Shown: positions 1-64,000, numbered from the stretch's first letter. The stretch: DNA of 64,000 nucleotides from a virus (IMGVR_UViG_3300012920_000023:49464-113463); one strand, 5' to 3'. The notes: a model not told the origin generated them from the letters alone. A program made the numbers and translations.

Positions 1-3000
1 CATACCACCCGTAGTGATCTTTGCGGTTGTAGTGCCGGCACTCGTTGTGTCTCCGATAGTAAGAGCATTTCCACTTACTCCGGCTTTACCTTGAATGTGC
101 AGACTACCCTGTGGATTGAGGTTAAACTCGCCGGGATCTTCATCCCATGAAATGATCGCATTTGTGTCTGTACCACGCTCCACAGTTAGCAGAGTTGCGT
201 CGGCATTATCACCGGCGTTCGTATCATTTGAGTTGAACACGATACCGCCACAAGTATCATCTAGGTTAAGAGTGTCGCCTAAAGTTGTAACGCCGGTTAC
301 GGCAAGTGTGCTCGTGACTGCGAGAGTACCTGCGATGGCAGTGTTGCCACTTGAAGCGGTGACATTGAACTTGTTCGCTCCAACAATAAAGTTTCCGGTA
401 GACTTAAGTGCATTAGACAACGCCCAATGGCCATTAGTCTCGTCCCACTTGATGCTTGCGTTAGTCTCATCGCCACGCTCTACCTCAATGATTGCGTCTC
501 GCTCTTGGCTTGTGCCTACATCACTGTTGAGCACAAGCATTGCACTCTGAGAGGCATTACTTAAGTCGCTCGCTTGAATGTTAAGACGGCCTGCCTGCGT
601 AGTCGCACCTGTGGAAGAAACGACAGTGTACTTAGTTGATCCAACAGCACCTACAGTGAGATTCCCGGTTGAGTTAAGTGCATGACTGAAATCAAACACA
701 CCGGGATTAGTGTCCCACTTAATGGTTTTATAAGCCGGGCCTGCACCGCCGTCATTGACACGGATAAGTGTTGCGTCTCCGGCACTTCCATTTGAAGCGA
801 TATCAGAACGGAAGGTGATACCGTCGGATATGCCGTCCTTGATGTTCAACGCATCTGCAAACGTTGTTGCTCCTGCAATCGAGACAACGCCTGCTGTGCT
901 GACGGTAAACTTGTCGGTGTTGACAGCAAATGTGCCGTTAGTTGCGATGTTACCGCTAGTGTGTGCGACTGTGAAAGCACCACTGCTCACATTGATTCCA
1001 CCGTTAGGACTGAGTAGTCCGGAGAAAGACCCGACTCCAAAACTGCTTGTGGATGTAGATGATGCTGTGAAACCGCCCGATGAACCTGTGCAGGTCATAG
1101 AGTCGGCCTTTAACTCATTCCCTCCGAAACTCGTCTCACCACTTGCCGAGGTAATCTGTCCGCTTGCGAATGTTAGGTTGGCGATCTTTGACGATGCCGG
1201 TAATTCGGTAATCTCATGGAACTGAATCTTGTGTGCACTCGTCGTTGTCACAAAAGTGGCGAACCCGTCGGTGTCTGCGGAGGTTCCAATCGTTAAGGCA
1301 GAGGGCTTGTTGGCATCTAGGAGAATGTTGAGGTTTGACCCATCATCACTCTTCAAAATGTCTGCGGAGAGTGAGCCTACATTAACAATGTTGAAATCAC
1401 CAACGTCTAGGTTTGCTCCGAGGGTAGTAACTCCCGTTACTGCTAGTGTACCGGCGATGGCCGTATTACCACTCGCCTGTGCGACTGTAAACTTATTCGT
1501 ACCGACTGCTGTACCGACTGAGAAGTCTGTGTTTGAGTGAAGTTTCCCACCGTTTACTGCAAACGTGCTATTGACATCATCCCAAAAAATATAGCCCTCA
1601 TCGGCATTGCCCGATCCGGCTTCTACAGTGATCAATTTCACATCGAAGTCAGAACTTTTATTTTGTGCACCACGATCTGAGTTAAAGACGATTCCGAAAT
1701 CATCGTCCGGTTGGCTTTGAATGAACAGGGTGTCTTTTACGGTCAACTCTGCGTTTACAAACCCGTTCCTTGTGATGATCAAGTCTTGGCCTACAGTTAC
1801 ATCGGTTGAAACTGAGAGGTTGTGGCTAAACGCCCAAGTTGTCTCATCATGTTGCCAAGTAATCGTTGAATAAGTATCGCCCATGTCAACGGCAATCACT
1901 GCGTTCTGACCCTGCCCTGTGCCTGTATCGGCATTAAGGATGATCAACTTATCGGATTCAGTAGACTTCTTATTTATACTTAGTGTGGAGTCTGCTCCAA
2001 GCGTAGCACCGCCCGTTAGAGTTGACAGTCCGGCTACTGAGAGAGTACCGGTTCCTGTCGCACTAATGTTGCCGGAGGTGGTAAGGTTCTCGCTTCCAAA
2101 ACTAATTTGAGCACCACCGCAGACAATACTTCCATCTGAGATTGTGATGTCGCCAATGCTTGATCCGGACTTAAAACTAGATACGTCGTTTGTAGCGGTA
2201 ATCCCACCGTCTGTGTTTACCACGAAGTCATCATTTACGTTGATTCCCCCGTCTAGTGAAGCCAAGCCCGTTACGTTGACTTCTCCGGATGCGGTCAAAT
2301 CTTTAAGAGACAGGTCTGCGTCCGTTGTGTTACCGGTGGTGAAGTCGGATGCTGTGTGTGCTTCTGTGGTTAGCCCGAATCTAAATGCACTTGCGGAGTC
2401 GTCAAAGTACAAGATAGCGTCGTTCCCACTGTTACCACGCTCCATCAGAATACCGATATCGTTTGAGTTAGCACCTCCTGCCACCGAGTGGTTCAAGCGA
2501 ATAACCGGATCTTTAACCTCTAGGGTTGTTGTGTTAACCGTTGTGGCAGTTCCGCTAATCAACAGGTCGCCGGTTATTACAACCTTACTGCCTGTACCAC
2601 CAAGAGTAATGGTGTGTGGGTTATTGCTTCCGTCTTTAGTAACGGTCGCTCCGATAGAGACATTTCCGTTAGTGAAGTCTAAGCCTGTAAGCCCGGTAAA
2701 TGCAGTTTCTGTGGCTCCGAGGGCTACAGAAGTCGCCCCGATAGTCACTGTACTGTTAGTCAGTTTGGCATTTGAGATTGCACTATTATTAATAATGTCG
2801 ATTTTAGCCGATGTGATAGCACCGCTTTGAAGCGTCGCCACACCCTCGTTATTGATGTTTAAGTCGCCGGAGATGGGCTTATTTCTAAACTGATTTGCCC
2901 CGGTACTCCCGTCGGAGTCAGTATTAAAGATAAGAAAATCTGCGTCTGAGAGTGCGTCCTCAGTGCCACCGTCTACTCCTAGGGTGACGTTTGACAGTGA

Positions 3001-5832: not shown

Positions 5833-5861
5833 TTGACTATACGAGTGTCTTAATATAGTAT
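5833..5861 (+). promoter_or_regulatory. Sigma70-type promoter
   Basis: TTGACT-17 nt-TAGTAT preceded by T-rich tract. Confidence 0.7.
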
Positions 5862-35169: not shown

Positions 35170-35267
35170 GCATCAACAGTGGCCACCTATGGTGCTCGTA
35201 AACGCCTGTAAGTAAATGAAAATAAGTGTTATTTGTATTTGACATTCAAGGCCACTTGATATAGTAT
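35170..35267 (+). promoter_or_regulatory. Palindrome-promoter module (degenerate left arm)
   Basis: GCATC..TATGGTGC ends 35195; 43 nt; TTGACA 35239; 17 nt; TAGTAT. Confidence 0.75.
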
Positions 35268-35531: not shown

Positions 35532-35676
35532 GCACCTTATAGGCAATTATGGTGCTCTGCAACTTAGGAGCAACTTAGGAGCACCTTATAGGTAAACCAT
35601 AACGCTTCTAAGTTGTTAAAATAAATCAAAAAAAGATCATTTTTAACTTGACTATAAGGCAGGGCCGAGTTAGTAT
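35532..35676 (+). promoter_or_regulatory. Palindrome-promoter module (one full and one degenerate site)
   Basis: GCACC-N14-GGTGC 35532-35555; second site from 35581; TTGACT 35648-17 nt-TAGTAT. Confidence 0.8.
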
Positions 35677-36127: not shown

Positions 36128-36261
36128 GCACCTTATATATGTGTTATTGGTGCTCCTTAACCGGCTTACATATATAGAACACCATAGCCGGTAAAAGTGT
36201 GACATTTTTTTTAAAGTTTTTTTATTTTTATATTGACTATCACCTTAAACAGAGTTAATAT
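36128..36261 (+). promoter_or_regulatory. Palindrome-promoter module
   Basis: GCACC-N16-GGTGC 36128-36153; TTGACT 36233-17 nt-TAATAT. Confidence 0.8.
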
Positions 36262-36679: not shown

Positions 36680-36776
36680 GCACCTTTATTGACCATAATG
36701 GTGCTCCGTAAGGGCTTAAAACAAATAAACTTTTTTATTATTTTTACTTGACTATTGGGTGTGGATATTGTACTCT
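36680..36776 (+). promoter_or_regulatory. Palindrome-promoter module
   Basis: GCACC-N15-GGTGC 36680-36704; 43 nt; TTGACT 36748. Confidence 0.8.
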
Positions 36777-36814
36777 ATATACATGTTAAAGATAAACGCA
36801 AAGGAGGCGTTAAC

Positions 36815-37033
36815 ATGAAAGAGCAAAAACCCTTTAAAGTACTCGTCAAAGATATGGATTCTCATCATGGCGTCGAGTTCAAAATCAAAGAGAAAGGCGT
36901 GCCAAGCGTGGACGCCAAAATCTACCGAGCAATTGAGCAAATCAAACTGCAACGTAAGGAAGCCAATATGTTTGAAGTCCGTATTACTGCATGTAACGGA
37001 GGCCATGAAGATTACCAACTAGTCTCGCCCTAA
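36815..37033 (+). CDS. Hypothetical early protein
   Basis: AAGGAGG RBS before ATG 36815. Confidence 0.7.
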   Translation: MKEQKPFKVLVKDMDSHHGVEFKIKEKGVPSVDAKIYRAIEQIKLQRKEANMFEVRITACNGGHEDYQLVSP

Positions 37034-37138: not shown

Positions 37139-37235
37139 GCACCATTATGATCAATAAAGGTGCTCTTAAGTACCTGTAATCAAATGAAAATAATTGTTTC
37201 TTTTACTTGACTAACAGTGTCCCTTAGTGTATAAC
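37139..37235 (+). promoter_or_regulatory. Palindrome-promoter module
   Basis: GCACC-N15-GGTGC 37139-37163; 43 nt; TTGACT 37207-17 nt-TATAAC. Confidence 0.82.
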
Positions 37236-39328: not shown

Positions 39329-39477
39329 CTCCGATATTCAACTTAAAATGTTCACTGTGAACATATAACGGATGATGATTGTCACACGCTAGGTTCAATG
39401 TCAAGTCGAAAAGATTGTGCACACGAGTGCATGATGTGGCCGGCAGATTATCTTCTCAGAAATACTTTCTTTTTTAC

Positions 39478-58745: not shown

Positions 58746-58841
58746 GCACCATAGTATAGTCTAATGGTGCTCCGTAAGTCTCCGGTTTTATTTAAACTTT
58801 TTTTATTTTTAGTTGACTTTCAATCGGTAATAGGTTAATAT
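58746..58841 (+). promoter_or_regulatory. Palindrome-promoter module
   Basis: GCACC-N15-GGTGC 58746-58770; 42 nt; TTGACT 58813-17 nt-TAATAT. Confidence 0.82.
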
Positions 58842-58878
58842 ATATACATCATTAAATAACGACTTAAGGAGGTCGAAA

Positions 58879-59223
58879 ATGAGTGAATATATTAGAGCCT
58901 TAGTAACGAATATGGATTCTTTAACCGGAGTCATCATTGAGTTCCCTAACGAGCCGGTCTTTACTGAGACCGAAAATATCGTGGATACTCTAGAAGAGTC
59001 TTTTCCTATGATCAACTTTACTCACGTTAATATCTTGACTCATCCGGTCTTTGAGTATACGGCCGTTGATAAAGTCTTGGAGAGCGATGAACTTCAAATC
59101 CTTGGTTCATTTAAGACTATTGAAGAGTATGAAGCCTTTACTCAAGGCGTTCGACTCGGCTTAAGTATTGAGTTCGATAAGATTGAAGTTACACGCTCCG
59201 CTTTACGACTCATTCAAGATTAA
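58879..59223 (+). CDS. Acidic hypothetical early protein
   Basis: TAAGGAGG RBS. Confidence 0.7.
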   Translation: MSEYIRALVTNMDSLTGVIIEFPNEPVFTETENIVDTLEESFPMINFTHVNILTHPVFEYTAVDKVLESDELQILGSFKTIEEYEAFTQGVRLGLSIEFDKIEVTRSALRLIQD

Positions 59224-59277
59224 AGCGAGGTGAGAGCCGGATCGGGTGTACACGCCGGCTCATAAGGCCGGAGCAAA

Positions 59278-59375
59278 GCACCATTAGTATAACCTTATGG
59301 TGCTCCGTAAAGCCTTAATATATATTAAACTCTCTTTCTTTTTTACTTGACTATAAAGGCCATACGAGGTAGTGT
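59278..59375 (+). promoter_or_regulatory. Palindrome-promoter module
   Basis: GCACC-N16-GGTGC 59278-59303; 43 nt; TTGACT 59347-17 nt-TAGTGT. Confidence 0.82.
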
Positions 59376-59413
59376 GTATATATATTAATGATAAAGGCTT
59401 AAGGAGGCCGAAA

Positions 59414-59626
59414 ATGATGGTATCTGATTTTCATAATATACGAATTTGGGTGATTGAGGTATGGAACGTGAACGGCGACTCCGTACTTTTTACCGCTTCA
59501 TCAAAGGCTCGGGCAATCAAGATTGCAGAGGAGGCACTCAAGCCTTATCCCGTTGAGGTTGAGAACGGCGATAGAGGCTTTGAGTTGACGAGTACAACGC
59601 TTGATGAGGTATTTGAGGTTTACTGA
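59414..59626 (+). CDS. Small early protein, paralogue A
   Basis: TAAGGAGG RBS; highly similar to 60608 ORF. Confidence 0.75.
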   Translation: MMVSDFHNIRIWVIEVWNVNGDSVLFTASSKARAIKIAEEALKPYPVEVENGDRGFELTSTTLDEVFEVY

Positions 59627-59713
59627 ACAAGACGGGCGGTCATAGCCACCCGGAAAATAATATGATTGAGGTTGATTAAGTTGACGGGTAAGTAGTGCTT
59701 GATTAAGCCAACA

Positions 59714-59810
59714 GCACCTTTATGAGTATCAATGGTGCTCCATAAGTGCCGGTATTTATTTAAAGTTTTTTTATTTTTATCTTGACTATAAGTGAAAGGT
59801 TAGGTACTAT
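59714..59810 (+). promoter_or_regulatory. Palindrome-promoter module
   Basis: GCACC-N15-GGTGC 59714-59738; 43 nt; TTGACT 59782-17 nt-TACTAT. Confidence 0.82.
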
Positions 59811-59850
59811 CTGAGTATGTTAAATGATATGAGCCAATAAGGAGGCTTCA

Positions 59851-60297
59851 ATGACTACTATCACTTTCCGACACTGCCCCGAAATCCTAGAAGACATCGA
59901 GGGTACAATTGAGTCCAATCAAGTATGGGTTGAGTTGTTCGATTCAAGACATTACATTCCAATCAACATCGACAAAACCCCAAACACTGAGGGTCTGAAT
60001 CTTGAGGTATTCGAGGTCTATGCTTATGTACATGGATCAGTCAAACTTTCTCTTACCCCTTTTCATTGTAATTGGGATGCCGGAGTTGCAGGACGTATCT
60101 TCATCGAACAGCAAATTGAGGGCGAGGCAAAGGTTAAGAGAGTTGAAAAGGTAATCAAGTACCTTAACGACTTCCTTAATAATGACGCATTTGAGTATTA
60201 TGATGAGGAGGGGGAGATAGAGGAGTTTAATGGCAACATGGAGGAATGTATGGAATATGCGAGTAAGTTAGGCTTGGAAGCAGAGTTCGTTTACTGA
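59851..60297 (+). CDS. Conserved acidic phage protein
   Basis: YAYVHGSVKLSLTPFHCNWDAGVAG motif. Confidence 0.7.
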   Translation: MTTITFRHCPEILEDIEGTIESNQVWVELFDSRHYIPINIDKTPNTEGLNLEVFEVYAYVHGSVKLSLTPFHCNWDAGVAGRIFIEQQIEGEAKVKRVEKVIKYLNDFLNNDAFEYYDEEGEIEEFNGNMEECMEYASKLGLEAEFVY

Positions 60298-60393
60298 ACA
60301 ATCACTTGATGAAGATGAAGTTTAAAGACTAAAAGGCCCGGCGACCTAGGTTTAGGAAGTTGTGCCCGAGTGAATGAACCCGGGGGGATCACA

Positions 60394-60573
60394 GTACCAT
60401 AAGGCTGTACTATGGTGCTCTCAGTGCGGATCGTTCTGATCTAATGTACACACACGGGTCGTGTCTGTTGCCGGTTGCACCATTAATGACACTTATGGTG
60501 CTCTGTAAACCCCTAAAAATAAATAAACTTTTACTGTTTTTTACTTGACTATGCTAACGATGCGATGTAGTAT
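60394..60573 (+). promoter_or_regulatory. Palindrome-promoter module with two sites
   Basis: Sites 60394-60418 and 60477-60501; 43 nt; TTGACT 60545-17 nt-TAGTAT. Confidence 0.82.
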
Positions 60574-60607
60574 GTATATATATTAATAGAGGCTTAAGGA
60601 GGCCATC

Positions 60608-60811
60608 ATGACAGTATCAAAAATGACAGTATGGGTGATTGAGATTTGGCAAGTTGGATACGACCCTGTTTTATTCACAGCGTCAACTCGTGAAAAGGCG
60701 ATTGAGATGGCCGAAAAGGCTCTTGAGCCATACTCACTTGAGGTTGAGAATGGCGAACGAGGATACGAGTTGACGAGTACAACGCTCGATGAAGTTTTTG
60801 AAGTTCACTAG
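60608..60811 (+). CDS. Small early protein, paralogue B
   Basis: Shares WVIE.W, LFTAS, EVENG.RG.ELTSTTLDEVFEV with 59414 ORF. Confidence 0.75.
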   Translation: MTVSKMTVWVIEIWQVGYDPVLFTASTREKAIEMAEKALEPYSLEVENGERGYELTSTTLDEVFEVH

Positions 60812-60828
60812 CAGTTAAGGAGACTGAC

Positions 60829-61095
60829 ATGACAGACCATGAAGCAAAAGAGAAGATTGAAGAGACCCTCGCCCGAGTCAAGGGGGAGGAGAAGTGTGAA
60901 GTTGACATTGATGATGTTGCTCACCTCGGCTCAAGGAGTTTCTATCTCGTTGAGGATGAAGAGGGCGATACTCATATCGTTCGGGTTGGCACCGAGGGAG
61001 TATGCATTTGGGAGAGCCGACCGTCAAACGCATGGGGAGGACGCCTTGATGAACGATGGGACGAGATAAAGGAGATGGAAACCGATTATCTCTAA
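60829..61095 (+). CDS. Acidic hypothetical protein
   Basis: TAAGGAG RBS. Confidence 0.65.
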   Translation: MTDHEAKEKIEETLARVKGEEKCEVDIDDVAHLGSRSFYLVEDEEGDTHIVRVGTEGVCIWESRPSNAWGGRLDERWDEIKEMETDYL

Positions 61096-61153
61096 GGGGA
61101 TTGGCGTTTAAGCCACCCGGAGAATAATGTGATTGAGATTGATTAAGTTGACA

Positions 61154-61250
61154 GCACCTTTACGAGTATTAATGGTGCAGTGTAAGTGTCTGTTTTTGTT
61201 TAAAGTTTTTTATTTTTTTATTTGACAAACAAACCTGTGTGGGTTATAAC
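61154..61250 (+). promoter_or_regulatory. Palindrome-promoter module
   Basis: GCACC-N15-GGTGC 61154-61178; 43 nt; TTGACA 61222-17 nt-TATAAC. Confidence 0.82.
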
Positions 61251-61304
61251 TGTCTTATAGGGTAGGTTAGGATTTAAGGTTAGATAATTTTTAAGGAGAA
61301 AATA

Positions 61305-61685
61305 ATGGGAACTACAAAGATGAACAAGATTGAAGAAACAACTAGCAACATCAAGGTTGCGTACATGGAGGGCGGTCGTAAGGTTGTTCTTCTAACTCAC
61401 AGAGATGAGGGAGAGAGGCCGATTGAGGGCGAGATGGCTCACATTACAATATACAATAAGATTACAGAGGATTATTGTGACCCGGAAAATGGGGGTTGGT
61501 CAGTAGAGACAATTCATAGCGAGTTGGCTTCTTGCCCTATGGTTCGATATAACGAAAAGTGGGTTAAGTTTTTCATAGAGGGCTTGGCAAGCCAAATTGA
61601 AAAATGGGAGACGGAAGATGGTTATGATTGTTATATCGCCTTTGAGAAGCATAAAGGGCAATTAGAAAATACTTGGAACATCTAA
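61305..61685 (+). CDS. Hypothetical early protein
   Basis: TAAGGAG RBS. Confidence 0.7.
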   Translation: MGTTKMNKIEETTSNIKVAYMEGGRKVVLLTHRDEGERPIEGEMAHITIYNKITEDYCDPENGGWSVETIHSELASCPMVRYNEKWVKFFIEGLASQIEKWETEDGYDCYIAFEKHKGQLENTWNI

Positions 61686-61745
61686 AATACGGGTGAGACT
61701 CATTGAGATCAGAGGGTCGCCCCTCTGTTTGTTGGTAATAGCATT

Positions 61746-61843
61746 GCACCATGTGCCCATACTATGGTGCTCTATAACCGGCCGAAATCATTTTAAGTTT
61801 TCTATCTTTTTTAGTTGACTTTCAATATGGGTCGAGTTATGGT
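61746..61843 (+). promoter_or_regulatory. Palindrome-promoter module
   Basis: GCACC-N15-GGTGC 61746-61770; 44 nt; TTGACT 61815-17 nt-TATGGT. Confidence 0.82.
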
Positions 61844-61881
61844 CAATCAACATCAACGCTAAGGTCTAAAGGAGGCCCATA

Positions 61882-62157
61882 ATGATTATCGTATTAAACC
61901 CTAAGAGTCAGATGACAGTTCACCAAAACTTTGACGGAGTGAACGAGGGGACGCTCATAGCACTCGACTGCTTCGATATGCATCACAGGATTAGCAGTGA
62001 GGATTATGACAAAGCCTGTTATTACGTCGGTGAGTTCATTGACGGACGATGGGAATATACCGGGTTCACTGACCAAGAGGAGGCACTCAGATTTCAACTT
62101 GAATGCCTTGGCGATCATCATGCTACACGCATGGGCAAACTCACCTACAACAAGTAA
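61882..62157 (+). CDS. Hypothetical early protein
   Basis: AAGGAGG RBS. Confidence 0.7.
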   Translation: MIIVLNPKSQMTVHQNFDGVNEGTLIALDCFDMHHRISSEDYDKACYYVGEFIDGRWEYTGFTDQEEALRFQLECLGDHHATRMGKLTYNK

Positions 62158-62172
62158 TCAAGAGGAGAAATC

Positions 62173-62805
62173 ATGACCTATCAAGATTTAAGCGAGCATT
62201 CGTTCAGTAAAGCAGTCACATCCTATGGCACTCACTTATTATGGGAGTCGGTATCAGATGGCGAGGTTAAGCATCTCGTTGTCCCCCACGAGACCCTGTT
62301 AAGGCATTATAATCAACACAACGTCGAGCCGTTCCTAGATGATCCGGAGTTAGCCTTTAAGAAGCCACTAAAGGGCGTCTCAGACGTATCTTTTGAGTTC
62401 CCTTGGTTCCACTTTAGGTCAGAGGGGTTTGCCCTTGATGTGAGCCTAAAAGACCTATTTGACTATGGCGATATTGAAGCCGAGAATTTCACGGTCAATG
62501 ACGAGGAGTTTGTCCTAAGCAACGGACTGACAATGTTGGGCGAGGTGATCGGCTTTAATGAGAACTTGCTTATCGTTCGACCTAACTTAAAGGGCTTCAA
62601 TAACCTAGTTAAAAAGTTGACATACACGCTAGAAGTGTCGGGTCTGAGTAATGAGTCGATCATGTGGCTTAGTGATCCGGTTCCATACTATGAGACGGTT
62701 TGTATGAAGCGGTTGAGTGCAATCGACCTCAAGCCGGAGGATCATCTGATAACCTGCCGTCCGGTTGAGGGCAAGACGGTGTATTTCGCAGAGCCGGTAG
62801 GTTGA
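62173..62805 (+). CDS. Hypothetical protein
   Basis: GAGGAG RBS. Confidence 0.65.
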   Translation: MTYQDLSEHSFSKAVTSYGTHLLWESVSDGEVKHLVVPHETLLRHYNQHNVEPFLDDPELAFKKPLKGVSDVSFEFPWFHFRSEGFALDVSLKDLFDYGDIEAENFTVNDEEFVLSNGLTMLGEVIGFNENLLIVRPNLKGFNNLVKKLTYTLEVSGLSNESIMWLSDPVPYYETVCMKRLSAIDLKPEDHLITCRPVEGKTVYFAEPVG

Positions 62806-62906
62806 CTTTGAGCGATTTATTTCCTTAAGCCGGAGAGGTTAGTAGACAAGACCTAAGCACGCTCCTACAATGCCGAGGATCAAAACCCTCTCATATAGGA
62901 TTCATT

Positions 62907-63278
62907 ATGCTTAGAGATCTCTTAATGTTTATCCATGACTTTGTCTCTCATCCTCTTATGGCCATTTTTAGGTTAATGGGTCTTAACATAGTAAGCCGGG
63001 TGGTTCACGACTTAACTCTGCCGGCAGATATGAATGGGGCGATAGTTATAAACGGCGATGAGTATATGTTTGAAGAGCGTATGGCTCATGATGATATAGG
63101 TGCCCTGTTAAGTGAGGTGTTTAATAGCACTAATGGACGCATGAAAGCCGGATGCGTTGATCAAGACAAGTGGGCGGTGTCTTTTATTGGTCGGGACGGT
63201 GAGTGGCACACGTTCATTGAAGACACGGCGGTTGATGCGTGTCTCTCTGCCCTAGTCAGTATCAGTGAGGGCACTTAG
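62907..63278 (+). CDS. Hypothetical protein
   Basis: N-terminus paralogous to 53917 ORF. Confidence 0.6.
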   Translation: MLRDLLMFIHDFVSHPLMAIFRLMGLNIVSRVVHDLTLPADMNGAIVINGDEYMFEERMAHDDIGALLSEVFNSTNGRMKAGCVDQDKWAVSFIGRDGEWHTFIEDTAVDACLSALVSISEGT

Positions 63279-63297
63279 TGGGTCTATGCACTCGCTT

Positions 63298-63440
63298 GCA
63301 CCATTAGCAGTCACTAAAGGTGCTCCCGTATATAGGAAGTCGGTTCCTGTTTAGCCCGGTAATAGGAAGTCGCTTCCTATTTAAATATTTCAAACTTTCT
63401 TTCTTTTTTACTTGACTAACAGGTGGGTTTAGGGTATTAT
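63298..63440 (+). promoter_or_regulatory. Palindrome-promoter module with inserted hairpin duplication
   Basis: GCACC-N16-GGTGC 63298-63323; TTGACT 63412-17 nt-TATTAT. Confidence 0.78.
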
Positions 63441-63479
63441 ATATACATCATCAAAGATAGGTTCAGAAAGGAACAAAAG

Positions 63480-63860
63480 ATGAGAAGATTATATGATCAA
63501 AAAGTAACAATCCGACCCAATCTTCATACGGGTTGGAAGTTGAACAAGACCCCCCTTACGACGGTTCATTCGGGCCGGCTTGGTAAGAGTGAGACTCACG
63601 TCTTCACCTGCTCAATCAAATGCACCGACGCCGTGGTCAGACCTAGCGGTCAACGTAAGGCCGAGAATGAGGGCGAGAAAACGGTACACGCCGGCCTTAT
63701 TGGGGAGTTGATACCCACGGTAGCCATAGACCCGTATTTCGCCCGACAGGTTGAATATGCCCCCCACAAGGGCGACAAGTTTTTTCATATCAATGGGGAG
63801 CGTTATGACGGGGGAGGAATCATCACGGCGATTGGGCACTTGTTTTACCTAGTTGAGTAA
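63480..63860 (+). CDS. Conserved phage hypothetical protein
   Basis: NLH...SGQRKA....KTVHA...Y.PHK..FF motif. Confidence 0.7.
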   Translation: MRRLYDQKVTIRPNLHTGWKLNKTPLTTVHSGRLGKSETHVFTCSIKCTDAVVRPSGQRKAENEGEKTVHAGLIGELIPTVAIDPYFARQVEYAPHKGDKFFHINGERYDGGGIITAIGHLFYLVE

Positions 63861-63909
63861 GATGCCCGGGGCGGTGGGCATGTGGGGCGACGGCGAGAGG
63901 GGGGAGATT

Positions 63910-63971
63910 GCACCTTATAGCGTTTAATGGTGCTATCACTTTTGGAGCACGTTAATAACCATTAATGGTGC
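63910..63971. repeat. Two further GCACC...GGTGC palindromes
   Basis: 63910-63933 and 63947-63971, followed by A-rich tract to window end. Confidence 0.8.
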
Positions 63972-64000
63972 AATGTAAGTGGTTAAAAATAAATGAAAAC

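Follow-up and report, generated by a model that had tools for sequence, protein, structure and literature searches.

The window analysed here is a 64,000-nucleotide (nt) stretch of viral DNA that forms the right-hand 64 kb of a 113,463-bp contig from the IMG/VR collection (IMGVR_UViG_3300012920_000023, alias L158). The contig ends at window position 64000, and positions are given in window coordinates unless marked "genome", which refers to the whole contig. The right end of the window (58746-64000), together with an island at 35-37 kb, carries an array of small open reading frames (ORFs) in which a strong-looking host-type promoter stands before each transcription unit and a short palindrome with the arms GCACC and GGTGC lies upstream of most of these promoters. 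Judged by its sequence features, this stretch is very probably an early-gene cassette array of the promoter-early stem-loop (PeSL) type. A preliminary description of the same DNA had proposed an array of small-gene cassettes, each with its own promoter and of early or host-takeover type, and the mostly acidic ORFs, only one of which has a Pfam family, are in keeping with that proposal.

The first cassette, on the plus strand like all those listed here, opens with an exact 25-nt palindrome at 58746-58770 (a strict pattern match), followed by a promoter of the form TTGACT-17-TAATAT at 58813-58841 and an ORF of 114 amino acids (aa) at 58879-59223, with an isoelectric point (pI) of 4.3 and no Pfam family. 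The second begins with an exact 26-nt palindrome (59278-59303), which is also the left edge of a duplicated segment, and continues with a promoter at 59347-59375 and a 70-aa ORF (59414-59626) that is a paralogue of the ORF at 60608-60811. The third comprises an exact palindrome (59714-59738), a promoter (59782-59810), at the -35 hexamer of which the duplication ends, and an acidic 148-aa ORF (59851-60297). A variant palindrome, GTACC...GGTGC, then lies at 60394-60418 as an extra tandem copy with no promoter of its own. Beyond it, the exact palindrome at 60477-60501 and the promoter at 60545-60573 head a two-gene unit (60608-61095) encoding proteins of 67 aa (60608-60811) and 88 aa (60829-61095). 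The next exact palindrome (61154-61178) is followed by a TTGACA-17-TATAAC promoter (61222-61250) and a 126-aa ORF (61305-61685), after which a canonical terminator-like hairpin with a T run (61710-61727) directly precedes the exact palindrome at 61746-61770. The promoter of that cassette (61815-61843) serves a three-ORF unit (91, 210, and 123 aa; 61882-63278) with no palindrome between its ORFs. In the last complete cassette, two small AGGAAG...CTTCCT hairpins are inserted after the exact palindrome (63298-63323), and the promoter (63412-63440) stands at an exceptional distance of 88 nt. Its 126-aa ORF (63480-63860) is the only basic one (pI 9.2) and the only one with a family match, to PF25735 (Phage_L5_gp82, after Mycobacterium phage L5 gp82; E = 2.6e-12). 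An exact, promoterless palindrome (63910-63933) and a variant, GCACG...GGTGC (63947-63971), with its A+T tract close the array, and the contig stops before any -35.

The island holds five further cassettes. The one at 35170-35267 has a degenerate left arm (GCATC), an intact right arm, and a promoter at 35239. Two have exceptional distances, of 92 nt in the cassette at 35532-35676 (palindrome 35532-35555, promoter 35648) and of 79 nt in that at 36128-36261 (palindrome 36128-36153, promoter 36233). The remaining two are regular: 36680-36776 (palindrome 36680-36704, promoter 36748) and 37139-37235 (palindrome 37139-37163, promoter 37207), the latter with a canonical terminator just upstream of its palindrome. 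The ORFs behind the promoters encode 67-210 aa and are, as had been noted before, small and mostly acidic, with a pI of 4.3-5.0 in 9 of 10; for the same fraction no Pfam family was found, the tenth being the Phage_L5_gp82 homologue.

The carrier, to judge from its gene content, is a large uncultivated myovirus that is distantly T4-like at best. Matches to PHROGs families on the contig include a baseplate wedge protein, portal, head protease, major head protein, and a UvsX/RecA-like recombinase, and the contig also encodes a tape-measure-like protein, a ribonucleotide reductase, a DnaB-type helicase, and a large terminase. The baseplate protein is only ~25% identical to its counterparts in cyanomyoviruses and Streptomyces phages, the INPHARED phage collection contains no near match to the contig, and searches of the phage for MotA, AsiA, and RegB found none of them. 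There are no transfer RNA genes, and a tRNA-like reading of the repeats was dropped on that ground. CheckV puts the completeness of the contig at ~63%. Both contig ends fall inside cassette modules (window 63940-64000 and genome 1-110), so that the repeats are the probable cause of the break in assembly; further cassettes are likely in the third or so of the genome that is missing.

Alignment of all copies in the direction of their promoters shows the repeated unit to be a module of ~130 bp rather than a bare palindrome. It runs from the palindrome through the flank TCYRTAAG, a linker of ~10 nt that varies in sequence between copies, an A+T tract, the promoter, and a leader to a hairpin at the Shine-Dalgarno (SD) sequence and the ATG. 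A+T makes up 76-96% of the 25 nt that precede the -35, and these sequences fall into two recognizable subfamilies; the tract looks like an UP element. All promoters fit the near-consensus sigma70-type form TTGAC(T/A)-N17-TAnnn(T/C) given for them in the preliminary description, and one stands before each unit. The conserved leader opens with ACATCATTAA or a similar sequence. Spacers, leaders, and SD stems can all be aligned between copies.

A second conserved device lies at the downstream end of the module. In nearly every cassette a 4- to 6-bp hairpin ahead of the ATG carries the AAGGA core of the SD in its loop, and the stem covaries freely, with pairs such as GAC/GTC, GGC/GCC, AACGC/GCGTT, ACTC/GAGT, and GGTTC/GAACC. 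In 19 of 31 leaders the SD is closed by a stem of 4 bp or more, against 6.8 expected with permuted partners and a maximum of 14 in 2000 trials. Examples lie at 58850-58880, 59395-59415, 60585-60610, 61860-61885, and 36795-36820, in ~25 other leaders, and in a second contig, described below. The hairpin may present the SD to ribosomes or, alternatively, be the target of a nuclease.

The palindrome itself is far too frequent for chance. In the window, GCACCWT-N8-14-AWGGTGC is matched 11 times, where shuffled sequence would give 0.01, with eight of the matches in 58746-63933 and three at 35532, 36680, and 37139, and a strict pattern scan of the 113-kb contig yields 16 exact palindromes. Ten palindromes had been counted at 58746-64000; eight of these are exact, and those at 60394 and 63947 are one-mismatch variants. 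Of about six copies reported for the island at 35-38 kb we recover five, two of them variant, namely 36128 (...ATTGGTGC) and the copy at 35170 with the degenerate left arm. The consensus, (CAC)ACA-GCACC-WTWA-N5-8-TWAW-GGTGC with the TCYRTAAG flank on the right, is an imperfect palindrome. Its arms are 14, 15, or 16 nt apart in canonical copies and 7, 22, or 35 nt apart elsewhere, and the right arm with its flank is better conserved than the left, so that the element is asymmetric. Everted arm pairs (GGTGC...GCACC) number 7 against roughly 2 expected and are mostly side products of tandem copies.

This architecture of palindrome and cassette is already described as the PeSL class (PMC2839356, PMC4122927). 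PeSL cassettes are known from T4-type myoviruses, including the pairs RB49/phi1, PST/T4, and nt-1/KVP40; in them a stem-loop directly precedes an AT-rich tract and a sigma70-like early promoter, and the SD and a start codon come last (PMC4122927, PMC2839356). They cluster in hyperplastic regions where ORFs of unknown families abound, are better conserved than the genes they serve, are linked to insertions and deletions, and also occur as degraded half-copies (PMC4122927, PMC2839356). The array in the window shares the repeated intergenic modules in regions of unknown-family ORFs, the order of inverted repeat, AT-rich tract, sigma70-type promoter, SD, and start codon, the conservation of modules above that of flanking genes, duplication and probable exchange at modules, and the degraded half and tandem copies. 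It differs in having a single invariant pair of 5-mer arms (GCACC/GGTGC), inner positions rich in A/T, and a large unconstrained centre, whereas published PeSLs have stems with runs of G/C; in the absence of arm covariation and of a U tract and the weakness of the hairpin; in a near-fixed position (43 nt) and a directional TCYRTAAG flank, where RB49/phi1 have five positional subclasses; and in its carrier, which is only distantly T4-like and in which MotA, AsiA, and RegB were not found. On these sequence comparisons we regard the array as a PeSL variant with unusually invariant arms.

The pattern of conservation within the palindrome raises the question of what reads it. Among the arm pairs scored upstream of promoters, the outer five pairs are intact in 117 of 125 and the centre is unconserved; because these pairs are nearly all intact, they carry no information on pairing. 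At inner positions 6-11, pairing is no commoner than column composition predicts, and position 6 is paired in 7 of 22 copies, against 11.5 expected, and mismatched in the other 15. No covariation between the arms was seen. Arms that stay invariant around a centre that is different each time, across two genomes as well, point to a sequence-specific reader, and to this extent the earlier proposal of a recognition site holds. Gene conversion alone is insufficient to produce the pattern, because it would have homogenized the centre too.

We propose that host RNA polymerase would fire all cassette promoters together early in infection and that the palindrome would serve as an upstream boundary mark of each transcription unit, read sequence-specifically. 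A protein of phage or host origin, bound to the double-stranded site, could then insulate the cassettes or shut them down co-ordinately, for instance by acting as a roadblock or linking adjacent sites, rather than as a phase-dependent class I activator. Taken as a whole, the explanation of a PeSL-type array with sequence-specific reading of the palindrome, a protein being the leading candidate for the reader, seems to us evenly poised between right and wrong. That the reader is a DNA-bound protein, acting as an insulator or a shut-off operator, is plausible and falls somewhat short of probable. More tentative still is the combined proposal that the palindrome is both the docking site of a sequence-specific factor, which, with 25 or more sites serving as a regulon tag, would insulate or turn off the early cassettes as a set, and a seam for cassette gain and loss. 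If this were true, a factor docking at the palindrome would add a trans-acting layer that is not known from PeSLs.

The relation of the palindrome to the promoter was the basis of the more specific mechanism proposed in the preliminary description. Counted from the last C of GGTGC to TTGAC, the gap is 42-44 nt in 14 cassettes contig-wide. The nine in the window have 42 nt (promoter 58813), 44 nt (61815), and, in the other seven, 43 nt (59347, 59782, 60545, 61222, 36748, 37207, and 35239), exactly as first reported; the five outside it are four minus-strand cassettes at the left end of the contig and one degenerate plus-strand cassette at genome 46491. The near-constant distance is not, however, genome-wide: five cassettes have exceptional gaps of 58, 66/97, 79, 88, and 92 nt, owing to inserts of 15-54 nt. 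The inserts, placed after the palindrome flank and before the A+T tract, are extra hairpins, some of them canonical terminators with T runs. With the 17-nt promoter spacer, a regular palindrome spans about -103 to -79 and is centred at about -91, close to the -92 from which class I activation across a bent tract had been proposed.

Several observations weigh against functional coupling of the palindrome to its promoter and against a DNA-bound protein as its reader. None of the five insertions is near a whole number of 10.5-bp turns. Palindromes occur without promoters at a convergent junction (genome 5563-5596) and as the extra tandem copies at 60394 and 63910, and the palindrome is lacking at about eight promoters of this type that share the A+T tract and core, among them those at 5833, 39478, 51040, and 54096. 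The near-constant 43 nt follows mainly from the inheritance of palindrome flank, spacer, and promoter as one homologous module, and a spread of ±1 nt together with large insertions is about what neutral indels would leave, so that constant distance alone is no proof of a selected geometry. Nor are the copies independent, since only two genomes carry the motif. A symmetric dimer on the DNA fits poorly with arm spacings that range over 14-16 nt and extend to 7, 22, and 35 nt, and with flanks that are asymmetric. No DNA-binding domain was detected in a Pfam scan of 10 neighbouring ORFs. The class I geometry of the preliminary description is thus not supported, given the off-phase insertions and promoterless copies, and its dimeric factor, if symmetric, is at odds with the variable arm spacing and the better conserved right side.

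A rival reading is that the palindrome is only an RNA stem-loop, as in published PeSLs, that attenuates or terminates the transcript of the upstream cassette, each gene being expressed mainly from its own promoter. The palindrome lies 3' of each transcription unit and is not found within the two- or three-gene units, and a hairpin with such a role would account for the promoterless copy at the convergent junction and the extra tandem copies, and would tolerate both variable arm spacing and a promoter distance broken by insertions. In a reporter, termination at one stem-loop of RB49 equalled that at rrnB T1 (PMC2839356). Among hand-picked degenerate arms, moreover, the sense-strand changes comprise five that are compatible with G-U pairing and none that gives A-C, but a systematic count reduces this to 3 to 2. 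The predicted hairpins are weak: the arms always pair, but stems of 5-8 bp, interrupted by A/T, with loops of 6-11 nt and energies of -8 to -14 kcal/mol are close to those obtained with shuffled centres, and no T run follows. The phage also possesses canonical terminators, some of them beside the palindrome at about four junctions (including 61710-61727, upstream of 37139, and genome about 3700). A weak hairpin that lacks a T run and adjoins canonical terminators argues that the palindrome is no ordinary intrinsic terminator. Arms that never covary, and inner positions that are not selected for pairing, also speak against a fold as the object of selection. Finally, in the divergent intergenic region at genome 4117-4142, the palindrome heads the first leftward cassette with no co-directional gene upstream, and an upstream transcript does not arrive there; this copy, together with a right arm that stands alone at the usual 42 nt in the second contig, indicates that the palindrome travels with the promoter. 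An exclusive RNA stem-loop role strikes us as possible yet rather unlikely, although it ranks nearly as likely as the DNA-bound protein.

A different RNA-based account is that the hairpin is a processing or stability signal, in which a ribonuclease or RNA-binding protein of phage or host would recognize the GCACC/GGUGC stem with its UCYRUAAG tail. By analogy with the RNase III sites of T7 and with T4 RegB, read-through transcripts would be cut into single-gene messenger RNAs or the decay of early messages would be timed. Most cassettes have no terminator after them, so polycistronic read-through is likely, and recognition of this kind would account jointly for the invariant arms, the free loop, the variable loop length, and the directional 3' flank. 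The stem is probably too short for RNase III, however, no RegB homologue was found, and the palindrome matches no family in Rfam. The palindrome of the divergent region and the lone right arm at the canonical promoter distance are left unexplained as well, and we consider a processing signal improbable.

We return to sequence-specific reading, with a DNA-bound protein as the foremost candidate, in the light of how the cassettes change. The array contains a diverged duplication of a whole cassette, in which 59278-59786 corresponds to 60477-61226 and the 70- and 67-aa ORFs are paralogues. The two copies are 70% identical in the gene and 82-93% identical in the 3' flank and following module, and ~300 nt with the 88-aa ORF (60829-61095) are present in the second copy only. 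The homology extends from the first base of the palindrome to the TTGAC of the next promoter; the modules are the seams at which cassettes duplicate. A scan of metagenomes gave one true relative, a 5.3-kb contig (L072) whose modules have 44-nt gaps, the same SD hairpins, and tandem and half copies, in addition to the lone right arm already mentioned. In BLAST comparisons of L072 with the genome the matches are modules (72-94% identity over 32-98 nt), the one exception being a 196-nt non-coding stretch with 68% identity. Two L072 ORFs match genome ORFs at ~30% aa identity and the others have no match; to go by these alignments, the genes behind the modules appear to change freely. Outside this pair the motif is not seen: scans of IMG/VR for motif plus promoter returned single chance matches only, 185,579 prokaryote genomes gave 15 scattered matches, about the number expected by chance, and phages with a RecA 50-56% identical lack the motif. 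RecA relatives at 71-80% identity are present on contigs of up to 86 kb in ENA/Logan.

Such dynamics could also mean that the palindrome has no regulatory role and is simply a homology patch or recognition site for cassette exchange, either by PeSL-style homologous recombination and mini-circles or by a site-specific system like that of integron attC sites or of repetitive extragenic palindromes (REPs) and their associated RAYT transposases. The edges of the duplication at the palindrome and the -35, the fact that modules are nearly all that L072 shares, and the half-sites, tandem copies, and dense non-coding arm cluster at genome 440-860, which look like recombination debris, are all consistent with exchange. 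The authors of the PeSL studies themselves raised the possibility that a DNA-binding recombination protein targets the conserved stem (PMC2839356). However, neither a tyrosine integrase (PF00589) nor a Y1/RAYT transposase (PF01797) was found in the 113 kb of a contig that is ~63% complete, homology-driven exchange would homogenize the loop as well as the arms, which is not what is observed, and the cassettes have their own promoters, unlike integron cassettes. An exchange patch devoid of any regulatory function therefore seems to us the least probable of the explanations considered.

Likenesses to other systems are more limited. The enhancer site of NtrC (NRI) is TGCACC-N5-GGTGCA, and its half-site core is identical to GCACC/GGTGC, but identity over 5 bp is weak evidence; the spacer here is 14-16 nt rather than 5, and the promoters are of the -35/-10 rather than the -24/-12 type, so the resemblance to NtrC/Fis boxes remarked on earlier does not extend beyond the half-site. 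The host-takeover module of the Bacillus phage SPO1 is made up of numerous short operons of small early genes, driven by strong sigmaA promoters, and is located in the terminal redundancy. The present array resembles it as a dense set of small early genes in which each unit has a strong host-type promoter and a strong SD; we know of no shared upstream palindrome in SPO1. A 26-gene cluster of SPO1 is mentioned in PMC6873191. Like REPs and bacterial interspersed mosaic elements (BIMEs), the palindromes are conserved and imperfect, lie between genes only, and are found as single copies, as tandem copies, and in clusters where orientations are mixed (genome 440-860 and L072), but no RAYT transposase was found, the setting is a phage genome, and the repeat is tied to a promoter module. 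With intrinsic terminators the palindrome shares the position of an inverted repeat downstream of genes and differs in its short, A/T-interrupted stem, its large loop, the missing U tract, and the co-occurrence of canonical terminators.

PeSL-like cassettes are a way for large lytic phages to carry, express, and swap fast-evolving early genes, among them candidates for host takeover and anti-defence. In the present array the stem-loop part has been kept as one exact sequence amid drift, which suggests that the sequence is read and not the fold alone. Its reader, if found, would offer a handle both on the co-ordinated control of early genes and on the seams where such arrays recombine. In addition, the module marks out a clean set of ~25 early ORFs without known function and brings with it the second conserved device, the SD in a hairpin loop.

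Other interpretations of parts of the module were considered and rejected. A micro-ORF running from ATG GTG CTC to the TGA of TTGAC has no SD, and its ATG is not conserved, the right arm being AAGGTGC in five copies. Pairing of the CTCCGTAAG flank with the downstream SD would have a constant central mismatch and fits poorly in several cassettes. A second upstream promoter, MotA-type or other (GGTGCT-N16-17-TAYTTW), is matched by TAnnnT in only about 6 of 16 copies, within a tract that is A+T-rich, and neither MotA nor AsiA was found. The sequences do not fit a CIRCE/HrcA operator or a sigma54 promoter.

Several smaller features of the two contigs may be recorded. A ~35-nt tandem duplication at L072 2937-3010 contains a whole palindrome, and in one of the copies an arm has undergone a G-T change (GGTGT). 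A further family of palindromes, TGCAC-N4-GTGCA, has the GCAC/GTGC core in common with the main one and occurs at window 39418-39431, at genome 4178, and at about 5155, 1530, and 160 in L072. At promoter 39478, where the main palindrome is absent, it ends 44 nt before the -35, in the usual position of the main palindrome. One copy in each of the two genomes abuts the first cassette palindrome of an array, and the other copies lie inside genes. Near the left end of the contig, on the minus strand, genome 353-1052 comprises ~700 nt without a convincing ORF, dense with ACACACAGCACC and GGTGCTCC arms, partly with a 63-nt period, and with CCACCGGG repeats; this arm-crowded stretch may be the remains of past cassette recombination, a structured RNA, or a place where the reader of the palindrome nucleates. 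Next to it, genome 886-1074 is 68% identical to L072 3916-4104. An inverted repeat, GATAGTCAA-N8-TTGACTATC, followed by a T run, lies at the end of a small gene at genome about 1045-1080 (minus strand) and at about 4070-4110 in L072. Conserved in both phages, it is a terminator-like hairpin made of two facing copies of the -35 word TTGACTATC.

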